From positions 6,269 to 70,268 of the forward strand of contig CAYTUQ010000004.1 in NCBI GenBank assembly GCA_964441235.1: a stretch of DNA of 64,000 bases. The letters are read 5' to 3'. Under the pieces are notes generated by a model. It had not been told where the DNA came from. It saw nothing but the letters and a program-made list of their open reading frames with translations, and did no database searches. This document shows positions 8,403-53,187 of this stretch, piece after piece. Each line of letters begins with the position of its first letter. Position 1 is the first letter of the stretch. The DNA comes from an uncultured bacterium. Its GTDB lineage: Bacteria; Fidelibacterota; UBA2242. A program made the translations under genes and the position numbers.

Positions 8403-8528
8403 ACTACTGCGTCTTCGGGACAGGGTGAAAGTCTCAACCGGCGGTAAAAGTCCGCGAGTTCCGATTAACATCGGGACTGAGTCTGTGAAATTCAGGCACC
8501 GACGGTAAGAGTCCGGATGGGAGAAGAT
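8403..8528 (+). promoter_or_regulatory. FMN riboswitch (RFN element).
   Basis: Conserved cores cttcgggaCAGGGTGAAAgtctcaACCGGCGGTaaaAGTCCGCGAg ... CCGACGGTaagAGTCCGGATGGGAGAAG. It sits immediately 5' of ribD. Confidence 0.85.
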
Positions 8529-8535
8529 CAAAACA

Positions 8536-44280: not shown

Positions 44281-44673
44281 GTGTCTCCTTCAATTTTACA
44301 TTGGTAAGTTAAAAAATTGATAGTAACTATTCAAGTTATTGCAATTATAGATTTTTCTATCTATTATCGCTTTTATGAAAATATAATTATGCGGATTTGA
44401 AGTAGTTTGTCTGCCATTGAGGGTCTGATTAAACAGATATAGTCCTTTACAGTTAATATTTTGATACTATATCAAACTTGACAATCGGAGATTAAATAAA
44501 TAAATTGCTTATGAAATAGAATGAAAGGCATCAGTTATAATACCCTGAGTTTCACTACAGATAAACCTCCAAAGTGGACAAGAATGGAGTACATACTTAT
44601 GTTGGGTTATAAAAATTTGTTTTAAGGATACTTAACATGGAAATATCCTACCCTTTATGTGAGGTATTGTGTT

Positions 44674-44847
44674 ATGGATAGAAAAAAACTTTCGGAACGT
44701 GATATCTGTACAAAATTCGTCACGCCTACTTTGAAAAATGCCGGATTGGATATCAATAAACAGGAATGTAAAGAATTTATTTTTATAGATGGTAAAATTG
44801 AAAAATTTGTTACTCCTATTTTACCATTGAACCACACCCGCATTTAA
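44674..44847 (+). pseudogene. hsdR: Remnant of the N-terminus of a type I restriction enzyme HsdR.
   Basis: MDRKKLSERDICTKFVTPTLKNAGLD matches the conserved HsdR_N start. It diverges and terminates after about 55 codons. Confidence 0.5.
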
Positions 44848-45124
44848 AAAACCATAAATAATTTAATAGAATCAGACTTTTATCAAAACGTTTTTAAGGC
44901 CATATTTGTAAATGAGAGAACAAACCAATTCCAATATTTAATCATATACTAGCTTAAACTTAAATAATTCTATTACAACTATAAATTGTGATTTTCTCTT
45001 CGAGAGACACAAAATATTGTATATTTCCTTGACATCTAATCAACAATTTTATAAATTCTATCCGATAAATTTTTATCGAAGAGACATAGTTATTTACCTG
45101 GAACTTTCTAATTTGGAGGAATAT

Positions 45125-46003
45125 ATGTCTCAAAAAAATATAATAGATCTTACAGAATTAATTGCTGAATTAGGGCGCAATCGTCAGTCATATGTATTTT
45201 TTATAGGTAATAGTATCCCTCAAATTCATGGCGCAAAAAGTTGGAAAGAAGTCTGCAAGAATTTAATTCATGTGTGTAATGAAAATGGATCATTGAAAAA
45301 TCATGAAAAAATGTACCTTGATAAAATTATCAATGACAAGAATAAATATTCTGAAATCATCATGAAATGTAGAAAACATCTTTATGAAAGAAATGCTGAA
45401 AATGTATATAAGAATATCATTTTGAAAGCACTTAAACAAGATGGGCAGCAGTATGAAACATATAAAAAGATAATTGAGCTTGAGCCTAAACACATAATTA
45501 CAACTAATGTCGATAAGTGTCTAATTCCACAAAATGGATATACTGTAAGACCTATAAATGAATATGAATTGGTGCCAGACCATGGAATATTTTATTTACA
45601 TGGAAGTATTGACAATTTTGATGAAATGGTATTTCCATTGGATAGCTATGATAGAGTATATTCTGATGAAACTCATGATCGTTTTCTTCGATCTGTTTTC
45701 CGTAATAGAATATTATTTATAGGTTATGGGTTTGGAGAAGGGGATATACTACATTATTGCAGATTTAAACCAGAAAAATATCGATTAATGTTAAGATTTA
45801 TTAAACTCTGTGGAATCCCTGACGATAGCGACGAACAAATATTTCTAAGAGGTGAAACAGATACATTGTGGGAAAGATTCAAAATATTTACATATGAATT
45901 TCCAGTTTTTGATAATAAATGGTCAAAATTAATTGAACTCTTAAATACAATTCATGCCACAATTACGGGTAAAAAGATAAGAGATATCGGAGATGAGTTA
46001 TAA
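45125..46003 (+). CDS. SIR2-like (SIR2_2) NADase-domain protein, candidate defence effector.
   Basis: Motifs YVFFIGNSIP, IITTNVDK (catalytic Asn), YLHGSID (catalytic His) and ILFIGYGFGEGD. RBS ggagga. Its TAA overlaps the ATG of the next gene. Confidence 0.6.
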   Translation: MSQKNIIDLTELIAELGRNRQSYVFFIGNSIPQIHGAKSWKEVCKNLIHVCNENGSLKNHEKMYLDKIINDKNKYSEIIMKCRKHLYERNAENVYKNIILKALKQDGQQYETYKKIIELEPKHIITTNVDKCLIPQNGYTVRPINEYELVPDHGIFYLHGSIDNFDEMVFPLDSYDRVYSDETHDRFLRSVFRNRILFIGYGFGEGDILHYCRFKPEKYRLMLRFIKLCGIPDDSDEQIFLRGETDTLWERFKIFTYEFPVFDNKWSKLIELLNTIHATITGKKIRDIGDEL

Positions 46004-48780
46004 TGTTTTACGATAAAATCATTAATATAATCGACAAAGACATAGAATTAATTGGTATTTCAAGCTCTACAAAATCGCTTTTATCAAATACCAAATACTA
46101 TCACTATTTTTTCGACCAATTAATGCGAAAAGCCGATGAAAGATGGATACCGATACTTAGAAAAAAGCATTTATTGACTTTCGATAAAAATCATGGTGAC
46201 TTTTTTCTTCCCCTTGAATACATTAGAGCTGTGCTTAAGAAAAGCCATCAATATGATGATGTAATTGTTGAATTACTGTATGATTGGAAAAAAGAATTAA
46301 ATGATCCGAAACTGTCTGATTATAATGTTTTGCGGATTTCCGAGATTTGTATATTGCTGGACGTTCAATACACTATTAAGACAGTAGATATAATGTTATG
46401 GTGTTTGAAATTATCTGATCGGGCAGCCCACATGGTTATCTCAGAGTTTGTGCCCTTTGCAAGAAAACTGAAAGAAGTCAATGCCAACAAAGAGATTCTG
46501 CGAATATTTAAAAATATCTTCAAATTTAAGTTCAGAAAAGAAAGGGCATTTCACTCAAAAGAGATCCAATTTCAATTTGATCAATATTGGACAACAGAGG
46601 TTTTTAAAGCAATCAAAGATGTTATAAAGAATGATCCCTTGCCCTACTTCCGACATTTAGTCAAAGAGTATCGGAATATACTTTTCAAAGTTTATCGAAA
46701 AAGAAAAGGTTATGATAGGAGTGATTACAGTTATATATCACGTCCTACCATTGAGAAATCAAAACACAATTTAGGTGTCAGCACCCAGGATACGATCATC
46801 ACCATGCTTAGAGATATTATTGATTTGACAACGGATTTAGAAAACAGCAAATCTATTCTTGAAATATTATCAAAACAGGAATACCCTATTTTTCATCGAT
46901 TAGCGTTATATCTTTATGGTGAACGATTTGATATTCTTGGTTATGAATACGAAGAACAGTTCATAAATAGTGAAACATTTTCGAATGATTCTCTTTCTCA
47001 TGAATTATGGGAAGTGATAAGGAAGTGTTATTCAAAACTCAGAAATCCGAAAACAATCGATAAAATATTATCCAAAGGGGAACAGAATTTAAGGGAGGAT
47101 TTAGAGCCTGAGAGGATAGACCATTATAATTGGAGCTGGAAATATAAATGGTTAACAGCAATTCAGAAAAACACTCCAGTACCAGAGAGAGAAAAAGAGA
47201 TAAAATATCTTGAGGATAAATTAGGCTATGAACCGGAGCATCCGGAGTTTGATGTTGGATATTCAGAAACCAAATTCGGATGGGATTCACCAATATCTAA
47301 AGAGGAATTGGAGTCAAAAAGTTGGCAAGAAATAAAGGAGTATTTATTAGAATTTGATGAAGAAAAAGTAAAACGAACTTTTAGTCATAAGCCGGAATAT
47401 GAAGGACTCCGGCGGGTTTTTAAAGCTGTTATACAACAAAAAAGAGACGATTTTATTAAGCATATCGATTTGTTCAAAGATGTCACGTTGAGTAAATTTT
47501 ACATCGGTACAGTTCCATCTGGACTTATTCCTAAGGATAATACATATAATCGAAAACTTATAATGACATGTATTGATTACCTAAACTGGGTGCTTGATGA
47601 AGTAGATGTGGGTAAACTTAATTTTGAAGATAGCAATATTTACATGCTTCAATTCGGGTTTGAAAACTTCTTTACTCACCTATATAATTTGAATGCAAAT
47701 AAAGATAATTTAATCCCAAATGAAGATTTTAATAAAATAGTAGCTATGATGTATAGATTTCATAAAATTGCTTATGAGATTGTTACAAGAGATATGGATT
47801 TAGATAATGCAGAGCAATCCTTTATTAGTAGGGTTTCAGGTGAATATTGGCAAGCCTTTCTTGCACTTAATTTTATAAGATACCGACAGGTGAATATACC
47901 GTTTATCATTCCCGAATTCAAAGAATTATTGACTAAAAGTGTCGGGAAAGATATCTATGTGAATTATCTTTTGGGAAAACATACAGCGAACTTCTATTTC
48001 CTGGATAAAAAATGGACTCGTAATAATATTGATAAGATTTTTCCAAAGTCTAAAAAGCAGAGAAATCTCTGGCTAGCAGCAATGAAAGGATTTCTCTGGT
48101 CACGTAGTTTGCATGATGATCTTTTTGAATATCTGTTACCCAATCTTATAAAGTTCTGCTATGAAAAACTGGATGAAAGGGAACAAACCGCGTTAGGTGA
48201 TCGAATTGGTTTTTATTACCTTCGGGATAGGACACACTTAAGGTGCAATCGGTATCTAATCAAAGAAATTGACAATTGTTATGAGAAACACCCAAAACTG
48301 TTTTCATCCATTATTCATTTTCTTGTCCGTTCTTATAGCGAGGAACATAACGGCATCAATATCAGAAAATATATCCGCTATCGATACAATATTATTAAGC
48401 AGAATCCTGAAAAATATAAAGATGAATTCGAAGCGTTTCTATATACATACAAGTGCTTTCCGGATATGAAGTATCGTGACTACTTGATAATACGGAAAGC
48501 CTTTAAAGCAACAGATATGAATACCCGATCGCTGGAAATCCTGGAGTTGTACACTTTTTTCAGAGAGAAGGAACTTTTCAGATATCTAATTCATCTGCTG
48601 GAATTTGAGTTAAAGGGTAATACTTTTCCATCCTATCGTTCAGAAGAATATTCAGAATTATTCAGAGCACTATATCAGAGCGGTGATACCTATGTTCAGC
48701 ATAAGACGAGTGTTTTGATCAATAAGCTTGGTGAACGAGGTTGCTATGATTTTAAGGATATTTATGAAGAGTACCTTTGA
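46003..48780 (+). CDS. 925-aa all-alpha-helical protein, partner of the SIR2-like gene (putative sensor subunit).
   Basis: No P-loop, nuclease or TM motifs. Helical-repeat character. Start codon overlaps the SIR2 gene stop (TAATG). Confidence 0.5.
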   Translation: MFYDKIINIIDKDIELIGISSSTKSLLSNTKYYHYFFDQLMRKADERWIPILRKKHLLTFDKNHGDFFLPLEYIRAVLKKSHQYDDVIVELLYDWKKELNDPKLSDYNVLRISEICILLDVQYTIKTVDIMLWCLKLSDRAAHMVISEFVPFARKLKEVNANKEILRIFKNIFKFKFRKERAFHSKEIQFQFDQYWTTEVFKAIKDVIKNDPLPYFRHLVKEYRNILFKVYRKRKGYDRSDYSYISRPTIEKSKHNLGVSTQDTIITMLRDIIDLTTDLENSKSILEILSKQEYPIFHRLALYLYGERFDILGYEYEEQFINSETFSNDSLSHELWEVIRKCYSKLRNPKTIDKILSKGEQNLREDLEPERIDHYNWSWKYKWLTAIQKNTPVPEREKEIKYLEDKLGYEPEHPEFDVGYSETKFGWDSPISKEELESKSWQEIKEYLLEFDEEKVKRTFSHKPEYEGLRRVFKAVIQQKRDDFIKHIDLFKDVTLSKFYIGTVPSGLIPKDNTYNRKLIMTCIDYLNWVLDEVDVGKLNFEDSNIYMLQFGFENFFTHLYNLNANKDNLIPNEDFNKIVAMMYRFHKIAYEIVTRDMDLDNAEQSFISRVSGEYWQAFLALNFIRYRQVNIPFIIPEFKELLTKSVGKDIYVNYLLGKHTANFYFLDKKWTRNNIDKIFPKSKKQRNLWLAAMKGFLWSRSLHDDLFEYLLPNLIKFCYEKLDEREQTALGDRIGFYYLRDRTHLRCNRYLIKEIDNCYEKHPKLFSSIIHFLVRSYSEEHNGINIRKYIRYRYNIIKQNPEKYKDEFEAFLYTYKCFPDMKYRDYLIIRKAFKATDMNTRSLEILELYTFFREKELFRYLIHLLEFELKGNTFPSYRSEEYSELFRALYQSGDTYVQHKTSVLINKLGERGCYDFKDIYEEYL

Positions 48781-48856
48781 CAGTAATCCCACACCACTTT
48801 AGAAAAACGTTGCTTTTTGTTAATGTATATCTTAACATATAATTTAGAATGGGTTA

Positions 48857-49270
48857 TTGAATAAAAGGGAAATCAGCTTTAAAAAGTTACCAATTGCAGA
48901 ATACTATGGTGAACCAATCTATGATGTGTGGCATGTGATTGTAAATGGAAAGCCGGTTGTTCTTGATTCTTTGCTTGATCTTGATGAATCCAGCCGGAAA
49001 GAGACCGTTGATATAATCAGTCGGATGGCGACAAGGGAAAAATACTACGGAGGAGTTGAGTGGAGGCTTAAAAAGCGAAAGTACGGTGAAATCAAGCCCT
49101 GGGGACATCGCTTTTTCTTTTTTGTTAAGTTTGGGGAAAATATAGTCATCTTTGATTACAGAGAGAAGAAAAGAAAGGGGCCATTAAAATCGGAAGTATA
49201 TAAATTAGTTGATAAGAATAGAGAAAAATATGAAGAAGAATTCAGAAGATTTATTAATAAGAATCAATGA
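48857..49270 (+). CDS. RelE/ParE-superfamily toxin (HigB / phage Gp49-like).
   Basis: The C-terminus GHRFFFFVKFGENIVIFDYREKKRK...EKYEE matches the Gp49/RelE consensus (yRiiy...ivil...KK). It is followed by an HTH gene. Confidence 0.5.
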   Translation: MNKREISFKKLPIAEYYGEPIYDVWHVIVNGKPVVLDSLLDLDESSRKETVDIISRMATREKYYGGVEWRLKKRKYGEIKPWGHRFFFFVKFGENIVIFDYREKKRKGPLKSEVYKLVDKNREKYEEEFRRFINKNQ

Positions 49271-49697
49271 ACTTTTTGCTGCTGAACCCGACGCTGAGCA
49301 GAAGGCTTGGGGAATTATTCACGATTTCTATCATTATGTTCTAACCTATATGGAAAAGAACAAAATCACCAAAGCGTATCTTGCCCGTAAACTTGGAAAA
49401 TCCCGAGCCGCAATTTCTCAAATGTTTAACAAAACACCGAATATCACAGTAGTTAAAATGGTCGAAATTGCTGATGCGATTGGCGTTGATTTATCTATTA
49501 TCACAAGAGAAATCGCTTTAAAAGCACGTAAAGTGGAATATCAAGTGAAGACAGATGTCTTACCAGTCTTCATCAAGATTGATAGGGATTTAGAAAAAAA
49601 AGTACGAGGAAAGAATCAAAATTTTCTTATAGAAGGTGGAAGAATGACAATACAAATTGGACAAGAAAAATTTGCAATCAGTGAATTTGAGGCATAA
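49230..49697 (+). CDS. XRE-family HTH antitoxin (HigA-like) with a C-terminal extension.
   Basis: HTH ITKAYLARKLGKSRAAISQMFN. Overlaps the toxin gene. Start placed at the internal Met MKKNSE. Confidence 0.5.
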   Translation: MKKNSEDLLIRINELFAAEPDAEQKAWGIIHDFYHYVLTYMEKNKITKAYLARKLGKSRAAISQMFNKTPNITVVKMVEIADAIGVDLSIITREIALKARKVEYQVKTDVLPVFIKIDRDLEKKVRGKNQNFLIEGGRMTIQIGQEKFAISEFEA

Positions 49698-49699
49698 TA

Positions 49700-50179
49700 G
49701 TGAATCAAAAAAGTGAAAAAATAAAAAAGTCCATTCGATTTCGACTGCTCGAAATAAAAAAAAATAGGTTTTATCAGAGTAACTACCTTGATTTTGCTTT
49801 ATCAAAGGAAGATGTTCTTAAGGGGAATTTAAAAATTGGTGTTAATTTTGAGCTTTCCCCAAATGAAGAAACTATTTCATTGGTTCTGAAATTGGATTTT
49901 TGCCATGCTGATCATGAATTGTTTGGAATAGAGACTGTCCATAAGTACAAAATAAAAGATTTTAAAAACGCCATTCAGTACGATGAAAATAAAACATTCA
50001 ATGTACCGGATGAAATTATGAAGTTGTGGATTGGAATAGCTATCTCGGATACTCGTGGTATGCTGGTTATTTTAAATTCAGATAGTGACTACTCCAGGAT
50101 TATCTTACCTTTGATTAATCTTGATGCTTTTCTTAGGAGTATTAAAAAATCTATGAAAATTGGGCAATCATCTGAATAA
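49700..50179 (+). CDS. Hypothetical protein, third gene of the toxin-antitoxin-like module.
   Basis: Starts 3 bp after the HTH gene. No recognisable motifs. Confidence 0.35.
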   Translation: MNQKSEKIKKSIRFRLLEIKKNRFYQSNYLDFALSKEDVLKGNLKIGVNFELSPNEETISLVLKLDFCHADHELFGIETVHKYKIKDFKNAIQYDENKTFNVPDEIMKLWIGIAISDTRGMLVILNSDSDYSRIILPLINLDAFLRSIKKSMKIGQSSE

Positions 50180-52197: not shown

Positions 52198-52498
52198 CAT
52201 TGAGATATATAATTAAAATTCGTGCAAATTCGTGTACTTCTTGGTTACTTTCATATAAACAATTAAGTAATTTTATAAAGTTATTAATAGATGTAGCTGC
52301 TATTGATAATAACGAGTTATAAAATCAACTATTTAATAGAATAATTATCTCAAAGAGATGTCAACGACAAATAGTTCGACTAATTTTTTCGCAACTATCA
52401 GTCCATTGGTCAACAGGTTTGTAGAAAGTTCAACATATATAGTTTCAATTATCTAAATTTTCTTGTTTAACCAGAGAAGACAAACTAAATTTTGGGAA

Positions 52499-53187
52499 AT
52501 GGAGAAAGAATTTAACGTTAATAATCCTCTCAACAATAGAGGAAATCTTGTTCTGAAAGCAGTGGTTTTAGATTATATTCGCAGCGCATTTCCTGTTAGT
52601 TCAAAACAAGTCTGTAAGTTCAATAGTTAAGAAAGCATCTAAGGTTTTTAATTTTTCACAGCAAACTATTGCCAAATTGTCAGGTACATCAAATTTAGGG
52701 GGTGTGATAGAATAAAGTTTTCATTCTCGGAGACCCGTTCAGCCGAAGGTCTGCCGAACGAATCGTATGATCTGGCGATTGTAATTTATCGTTTTGTTAT
52801 TTATGAATTTACAATTTAAATATGTTTCGGAGACACGTCTGGCGAAGGTTATATCATCACACCCCCTTAATGTTGAAACCTGATTTTCATGATTTGGACA
52901 AATTGAGTCAAATTATAATGCAGATTGAAGATGGTACAATAATTGCCAATATTTACGAGAATTGAAAGCACGAGTCTGGGATTGTGATATCTATTGGTTC
53001 AGAAAATGAAGACTATCTGTTACTTGATTTTAGTGTGGTTACAAAGGACTATGAAATTAGTGAATCAAAAGGTCTTGTATCTGTTATTGGGCCGAAAAGA
53101 ATGAATTATCCAAAGGCTATAACTCTTGTGGATTGTATTGCTGATGTTGTTAATTTAGTATTTGATAAAAAGATGGGAGGAAAGTAA
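52499..53187 (+). pseudogene. hrcA: Degraded heat-shock repressor gene hrcA, broken by frameshifts and a MITE insertion.
   Basis: N-terminal 43 codons MEKEF...NLVLKAVVLDYIRSAFPVSSKQV are HrcA-like. The MITE lies at 52698-52866. C-terminal fragments IEDGTIIANIYEN* and KHESGIVISIGSENEDYLLLDFSVV...GLVSVIGPKRMNYPKAITLVD lie in different frames. The total span is too short for an intact hrcA. Confidence 0.5.
52698..52866. mobile_element. MITE-like element, copy 2.
   Basis: It has the same termini as copy 1 (gggggtgtgatagaataaagttttcattctcggagaccc ... ggttatatcatcacaccccc). Its internal region is different and longer. Confidence 0.65.

Follow-up and report, generated by a model that had tools for sequence, protein, structure and literature searches.

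Organization of the SIR2-sensor locus

We analysed a 64,000-nucleotide (nt) stretch of contig CAYTUQ010000004.1 from an uncultured bacterium of the Fidelibacterota, referred to here as the window, in which two adjacent genes encode a SIR2 effector and a large helical sensor protein that we compare with the defence system DSR1. According to the list of open reading frames (ORFs), the SIR2 effector gene occupies 45125..46003 (+), starts with ATG at 45125 and encodes 292 amino acids (aa). An initial annotation made from the letters alone had given 293 aa, having counted the stop codon, while the motifs it quoted are all present. The sensor gene follows on the same strand at 46003..48780 (+) and encodes 925 aa. 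Both genes come with a start codon and a Shine-Dalgarno sequence of their own: a ribosome-binding site GGAGG, read from the sequence, is located at 45113..45117 (+), 7 nt 5' of the SIR2 start codon, and a GGAG at 45989-45992 lies 10 nt 5' of the sensor ATG. The latter belongs to the coupling junction (45989..46005, +), which also contains the SIR2 stop codon TAA (46001-46003) and the sensor ATG (46003-46005). The final base of the stop codon is the first base of the start codon (TAATG, position 46003), so the overlap that had been reported for these genes is confirmed by the sequence, and the two ORFs differ by one base in frame at this junction. A scan for promoters and terminators gave a signal no better than that of shuffled sequence.

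Relationship of the two proteins to DSR1

DSR1 is normally one protein of ~1,200 aa, in which an N-terminal SIR2 NADase is followed by a ~900-aa C-terminal helical sensor. The system (Dsr1, defence-associated sirtuin 1) was reportedly described by Gao et al. 2020 and Garb et al. 2022. In the window, the SIR2 effector carries the domain of a Dsr1-type SIR2 NADase, with the motifs FFIGNSIP at aa 25, IITTNVD at 124, YLHGSID at 157 and FIGYGFGEGD at 198. The GxG loop covers aa 26-30, and the putative catalytic residues Asn128 (TTN) and His159 (LHG), spaced by 31 residues, are invariant across 40 homologues. The protein matched Pfam SIR2_2 over the gathering score (2.3e-10). Its AlphaFold2 model (predicted local distance difference test score, pLDDT, 85.8; predicted template modelling score, pTM, 0.84) superposed along its entire length on the SIR2 domains of ThsA, DSR2 and KomC/HAM-SIR2 (template modelling score, TM, ~0.6, E 1e-8 to 1e-9 in Foldseek), and because of this superposition the predicted structure confirms the SIR2 fold. 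The motifs, the SIR2_2 match and the fold that had been proposed for this protein were thus all borne out by hidden Markov model search, AlphaFold2 and Foldseek. Among the PADLOC models, a match to LmuA (1.2e-13) and a weak match to ThsA (E=0.0015) were both restricted to the SIR2 part. A sequence search of the SIR2 protein in the PDB returned nothing specific, and neither the SIR2 protein nor the sensor had a match in PHROGs.

The sensor (46003..48780, +) is predicted to be an alpha-solenoid homologous over its full length to the DSR1 sensor region, as indicated by PADLOC, NCBIfam and AlphaFold2. Its AlphaFold2 model (pLDDT 80.4) consists of alpha-helices and one small hairpin, a small departure from the earlier description of this protein as entirely alpha-helical. 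No Walker A, DEAD or CxxC motif and no Pfam family match were found in it, and the motif, Pfam and PADLOC scans are consistent with the stated lack of P-loop, nuclease-type, TIR, Argonaute and HerA signatures. The sensor is no orphan of unknown family, as had been supposed, since it matches the Dsr1 sensor in both PADLOC and NCBIfam (NF041818, 7.7e-12, well under the equivalog cut-off). Sequence searches of the PDB with the sensor and with a 13-sequence sensor profile gave nothing specific. Homologues of the sensor at 60-81% identity are all 879-950 aa long. The most variable part among the close homologues is aa 501-600 (47503..47802, +), with ~53% mean identity against 63-83% elsewhere, and this segment could be a target-recognition surface.

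We then compared both proteins with the PADLOC Dsr1 model (PDLC04166), which has 1,227 profile positions. Aa 9-212 of the SIR2 protein aligned with positions 12-217 (1.8e-28), and aa 25-924 of the sensor aligned with positions 315-1224 (1.7e-37). Because the two proteins are colinear on this one profile, the pair is the image of a full-length DSR1 cut at about profile position 291-297. With 292 and 925 aa, the pair spans the 1,227 positions in 1,217 aa; the remaining ~98 profile positions are covered by the tail of the SIR2 protein (80 aa) and the head of the sensor (24 aa), both unaligned. A search with a profile of the SIR2 alignment returned short standalone SIR2 proteins and no fused Dsr1 of ~1,200 aa. 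As no fused SIR2-Dsr1 protein was found against which the pair could be aligned, profile coordinates were used in its place. On this basis, we consider it likely that the pair functions as a DSR1 encoded by two genes, in which the modules are carried on separate, translationally coupled proteins and the split falls at the joint between effector and sensor.

The reference system is DSR1 and not DSR2, because both proteins match the Dsr1 profile and no Dsr2 model matches either. The initial annotation had proposed a split DSR2-like system; the separation of SIR2 and sensor stands, but the likeness to DSR2 does not. DSR2 is a single chain that senses a tail-tube protein, and the partner in the window would in that case be the equivalent of the DSR2 C-terminal domain, sensing a phage tail-tube protein. 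Such a reading can draw on the superposition of the SIR2 model on the DSR2 SIR2 domain and on the alpha-solenoid C-terminal sensor that DSR2 also has (PMC11850899). We regard it as highly improbable, since the current data place the partner nearer to the Dsr1/Avs7 sensors than to the MID/CTD of DSR2.

Conservation and age of the split

In every close relative locus that we inspected, a SIR2 gene (286-306 aa) stands immediately 5' of the sensor gene. These close loci comprise the window with L001-4, a syntenic relative (L005/6), a Ca. Neomarinimicrobiota metagenome-assembled genome (MAG; L007, equal to L013), L008, a marine-biofilm MAG (L009/L014), L041 and L042. The pair was found in at least seven further distinct loci, or at least eight with the window, and 12 contigs, drawn from several samples, carry the identical window sequence. 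We observed three types of junction, namely the TAATG overlap (window, L005, L009), TAAATATG (L008) and a 13-nt spacer (L007). The relative frames of the SIR2 and sensor genes vary by locus, and the sensor start is invariably MFYD. The varied junctions and frames exclude a recent frameshift and an assembly error, and likewise programmed frameshifting yielding a fused protein, which we rejected because the relative junction frames differ among loci. The ratio of nonsynonymous to synonymous substitution rates (dN/dS) was 0.09-0.14 for the sensor and 0.24 for the SIR2 gene against the closest relative; both genes are under purifying selection.

Split pairs with the SIR2 gene directly 5' of the sensor gene were also found in distant lineages, including KSB1, Elusimicrobia and Terriglobia MAGs, at a sensor identity of 22-24%. 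On the Dsr1 profile, the two proteins of the Elusimicrobia pair cover positions 15-276 and 291-1212 (3.4e-135). A cultured organism is represented by Vibrio coralliilyticus OCN014, whose plasmid pOCN014 carries a pair (L043, NZ_CP009266.1 248126-251867) with an 8-nt overlap between the two genes. Its SIR2 protein (WP_040122581.1, 'SIR2 family protein', 306 aa) matches profile positions 5-301 (1.6e-58) and the partner (WP_040122582.1, 'hypothetical protein', 942 aa) positions 311-1213 (5.6e-113), a far stronger match than that of the window pair. Next to the plasmid pair lie genes for a SLATT-domain protein and for a Phd/YefM antitoxin. Viral contigs yielded no relative. The co-conservation of the two genes elsewhere, on which the earlier proposal depended, is thereby established from close relatives down to 60% sensor identity and into distant phyla. 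Judged by these sequence comparisons, the split of DSR1 is real, old, under selection and widespread.

These data also decide whether the window merely holds a broken DSR1, that is, a formerly fused gene in which a frameshift, a nonsense mutation or an assembly error has left two non-functional ORFs. Colinearity with a one-protein profile and the one-base frame difference at the junction are what such a gene would leave behind. This explanation is effectively refuted already and retains next to no probability, given the identical sequence on the 12 contigs, the recurrence of the split in close and distant relatives, the junction structures and frames that vary by locus, the separate start codon and Shine-Dalgarno sequence of each gene, and the purifying selection on both.

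Exchange of the SIR2 cassette

By blastn, the DNA of the window is 82-88% identical to that of L005 up to position 44650, shows no detectable similarity across the following segment, and becomes similar again at 45982, which is 21 nt 5' of the SIR2 stop. The exchanged cassette (44650..45982, +) thus contains a probable remnant of the type I restriction gene hsdR and almost the entire SIR2 gene. At the amino-acid level, the sensors of the two loci are 81% identical, and their SIR2 proteins only 27%. Within the clade of the window, the SIR2 gene behaves like a cassette that can be exchanged. The same chromosomal site carries different restriction-modification (R-M) remnants and different SIR2 cassettes in the window and in L005.

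Three lineages can be distinguished among the seven SIR2 partners, and these are ~27-34% identical to each other. For two of these lineages the best profile is Dsr1, and for the third (L005, L009) it is Lamassu LmuA together with Thoeris ThsA. The GxG loop and the TTN-D and LHG motifs are kept in all three lineages.

The wider sensor family and a probable second effector

In an exhaustive profile search (E <= 1e-3), the sensor family comprised 7,694 cluster representatives. Among the 150 best representatives, 103 are 900-1,000 aa long and match from about residue 1, i.e. they are standalone sensors, and 41 carry an N-terminal extension of 130-270 aa. Upstream of the standalone non-SIR2 sensors we found a conserved overlapping gene encoding ~185-259 aa without family assignment, whose product gave repeated weak, sub-threshold matches to the predicted pPIWI-associated nuclease family pP_pnuc_1. 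This gene is present in split form at L010 5322-6059, L011 1259-1957, L012 2881-3567, L017 4289-4981, L023 3665-4339, L033 3743-4522, L034 3584-4315 and L044 1700-2257, and as a fused putative ~230-aa effector, N-terminal to the sensor, in L020, L028 and L037. Aligned over its full length, the split ~230-aa protein shares 38-51% identity with the N-terminal domain present in the fused relatives, in which the Dsr1 profile match starts at ~290. This identity and the profile start indicate that effector and sensor have repeatedly been joined or separated at one position. The joint of the ~230-aa effector (profile ~290-315) is the same as that of the SIR2/sensor split. By sequence, the ~185-259-aa family is probably a second effector class of this sensor family.

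A broader idea, which we put forward tentatively and hold to be somewhat less probable than its opposite, is that the Dsr1/Avs7-type sensor is a trans-acting platform, the single-chain DSR1 being the minority form. One conserved sensor would be used with interchangeable, separate SIR2 cassettes in the lineage of the window, and sister lineages would carry the putative ~230-aa effector, fused or split, at the corresponding joint. If true, effector swapping at a tolerant docking joint would be a general route for the evolution of these receptors, perhaps driven by phage counter-defences that act against SIR2 or rebuild NAD+ (nicotinamide adenine dinucleotide), and the signalling from sensor to effector could be dissected in trans.

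Genomic island context

Upstream of the pair, the window keeps only a short, probable N-terminal fragment of hsdR (44659..44847, +), which matched Pfam HSDR_N weakly (E=0.2). What makes the assignment plausible is that a type I R-M operon occupies this position in all close relatives. The pair lies directly 3' of the type I hsdS in L007, L008, L009/L014 and L041, and directly 3' of a C-terminal hsdS remnant in L005 (4928-5059) and L042 (717-830). In the close relatives hsdM/hsdS stand upstream, and L009 has hsdR as well.

This neighbourhood suggests another possibility, that the SIR2 protein serves the type I R-M operon or acts alone and that the 925-aa protein functions by itself or together with some other effector. 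In its favour, hsdS or a remnant of it always directly precedes the SIR2 gene, the exchange of the SIR2 gene took place independently of the sensor, and many standalone short SIR2 proteins exist. We nevertheless judge that two unlinked neighbours are very unlikely. The adjacency of SIR2 and sensor is kept where the R-M genes have been lost (window, L005) and recurs in unrelated non-R-M contexts such as the Vibrio plasmid (L043), the start/stop overlap or a very short spacer is maintained, and colinearity with the fused DSR1 predicts a physical partnership.

Three small genes, possibly associated with the pair, follow at 48857..50179 (+) and encode a 137-aa protein, an HTH_3 protein of 155-162 aa (Pfam HTH_3, 1.2e-9) and a 159-aa PDC-M64C-like protein (PADLOC PDC-M64C, 1.7e-10). 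From 46000 to 50147 the window shares a contiguous block of 74% DNA identity with L007, although the genomic context is different, and the trio is 52/74/79% identical in amino acids (137-aa, HTH_3, 159-aa) to its counterpart in L007/L013. It has been co-inherited with the sensor both in L005 and, in another genomic context, in L007/L013. It was not found 3' of the pair in L008 or L014 and is absent from the annotated genes downstream in L043. The island had initially been described as containing an hsdR remnant and a toxin-antitoxin module; the remnant is only weakly matched, yet plausible, and the 3' HTH_3 gene with its small neighbours does look toxin-antitoxin-like.

One could argue from this arrangement that SIR2, sensor and trio form a five-gene unit, in which the small genes regulate or complete the pair. 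The five genes share a strand and lie close together, and the sensor and trio travel as the contiguous 4.2-kb block at 74% DNA identity in the different context of L007/L013, as well as in the syntenic L005. We consider such a unit unlikely, for the trio was not found 3' of the pair in L008 or L014, other genes are annotated downstream in L043, the 137-aa gene is poorly conserved in the DNA of L005, the last gene matches the separate PADLOC candidate system PDC-M64, and fused DSR1 works as a single gene (bioRxiv 10.1101/2021.12.14.472415). To us the trio is a candidate module that neighbours the pair and has a minority chance of being functionally linked to it; it may act as an accessory of the pair or be a separate module for defence or of the toxin-antitoxin type.

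Elsewhere in the window, hrcA (52463..53187, +), located 5' of grpE-dnaJ, appears to be disrupted into three or more short ORFs that lie in different frames, and only a 67-aa C-terminal piece is called HrcA; hrcA is fragmentary in the syntenic L005 too. A flavin mononucleotide (FMN) riboswitch at 8407..8532 (+; Rfam RF00050, 100 bits) is the sole Rfam family over the gathering score in the window, in which no tRNA genes were found.

Proposed mechanism

A complex of the SIR2 protein with the sensor is inferred from colinearity with the fused homologue, the coupling that has been kept and the adjacency across phyla. In our model, the 925-aa sensor would keep the 292-aa SIR2 protein inactive by binding it non-covalently, the complex being the equivalent of one DSR1 chain. 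On infection, the sensor would bind a phage protein, most likely newly made major capsid protein. We favour this trigger by analogy with Dsr1 of E. coli and with its homologue, the Avs7 sensor: a phage major capsid protein triggers the toxicity of EcDsr1, for which the effector domain is needed, and the Dsr1 sensor is homologous to the tetratricopeptide repeat (TPR) sensor of Avs7 (PMC12803255). Binding of the ligand would bring about a conformational change or oligomerisation that activates SIR2, which would hydrolyse NAD+ at the Asn128/His159 site and starve the phage, accompanied by growth arrest or abortive infection. The predicted NADase activity, the trigger and the defence phenotype of the pair are all assigned by analogy with the fused DSR1, which defends and causes transient NAD+ depletion on infection (bioRxiv 10.1101/2021.12.14.472415).

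Several points weigh against regarding the pair as a two-gene DSR1. The supposed binding of SIR2 to the sensor is deduced entirely from relations between sequences. None of the 150 best sensor representatives contains a SIR2 domain, and no fused SIR2-sensor protein is among them. The sensor scored 127 bits on the PADLOC Dsr1 profile and is far under the NCBIfam equivalog cut-off of 1,400; since it is only distantly related to characterised Dsr1, its trigger could differ. As SIR2 proteins that are 27% identical accompany near-identical sensors, the docking interface would have to be unusually tolerant or the contacts few. In addition, the solved structures that matched the sensor in the PDB searches are generic alpha-solenoids only, and for this reason its fold-level identity with Dsr1/Avs7 is drawn from sequence profiles and the literature.

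Significance and comparison with known systems

Catalogues and detection tools treat DSR1 as a system of one gene. In the searchable literature we found no description of a split or two-gene DSR1, and in the largest survey of this sensor family 'partial' proteins were removed during curation. Defence annotation tools may miss the SIR2 half of such a pair or call the sensor alone Dsr1. With the natural split, sensor and SIR2 can be expressed, mutated and swapped separately, which gives a handle on how the sensor switches the NADase, and the cassette exchange, in which 81%-identical sensors go with 27%-identical SIR2 proteins, indicates which surfaces must be tolerant. Together with the abundant standalone sensors, these features offer useful handles on receptor-to-effector signalling. 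The plasmid-borne example from the cultured Vibrio coralliilyticus makes the split DSR1 testable.

The SIR2 NADases of several known systems also stand beside a separate partner gene, as in SIR2-HerA (Nezha), SIR2-APAZ/prokaryotic Argonaute (SPARSA), Thoeris ThsA/ThsB and Lamassu LmuA(SIR2)/LmuB. The partner in the window differs from all of these in that HerA ATPase, Argonaute, TIR and SMC-like features are all absent from it, and its sole PADLOC match is Dsr1. Specifically, it contains no Walker A motif and no Pfam or PADLOC match to HerA, unlike SIR2-HerA; no TIR protein accompanies the pair, and the SLOG/STALD part of ThsA with a TIR-containing ThsB, which characterises Thoeris, is not found; and it matches Dsr1 rather than the LmuB of Lamassu. 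The initial statement that the pair matches no described two-gene system is therefore correct with respect to SIR2-HerA, SPARSA, Thoeris and Lamassu, yet the pair is a variant of the known DSR1.

DSR2 resembles the pair in combining a SIR2 NADase with an alpha-solenoid sensor, and the SIR2 folds are similar (TM ~0.6). The two differ in that neither window protein has a profile match to the Dsr2 models of PADLOC, and the sensor model does not retrieve DSR2 structures, so that the MID/CTD type of sensor is not recognised. As for Avs7, the comparison with the window sensor relies on the published Dsr1-Avs7 link, in which homologous sensors carry varied N-terminal effectors (PMC12803255), and this fits the effector diversity seen here. 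Unlike Avs7, the window proteins have no STAND NTPase, as judged by the lack of a Walker A motif and of any NTPase family match. By these sequence features, the pair does not belong to DSR2, SIR2-HerA, SPARSA, Thoeris, Lamassu or Avs7.

The closest system is DSR1, with which the pair shares a SIR2_2-type NADase with catalytic Asn/His followed, in the same order, by a ~900-aa helical sensor. It differs from DSR1 in placing these modules on two polypeptides encoded by overlapping genes, in having a sensor that is a distant relative, far under the equivalog cut-off of NCBIfam, and in the swapping of SIR2 between near-identical loci, in some cases for a LmuA/ThsA-like SIR2. Of the three features that define DSR1 at the sequence level, the SIR2 domain and the Dsr1-type sensor are recognisable in the pair and the single polypeptide is not. 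We conclude that the finding is a modest but real two-gene variant of the known DSR1 rather than a new kind of system.

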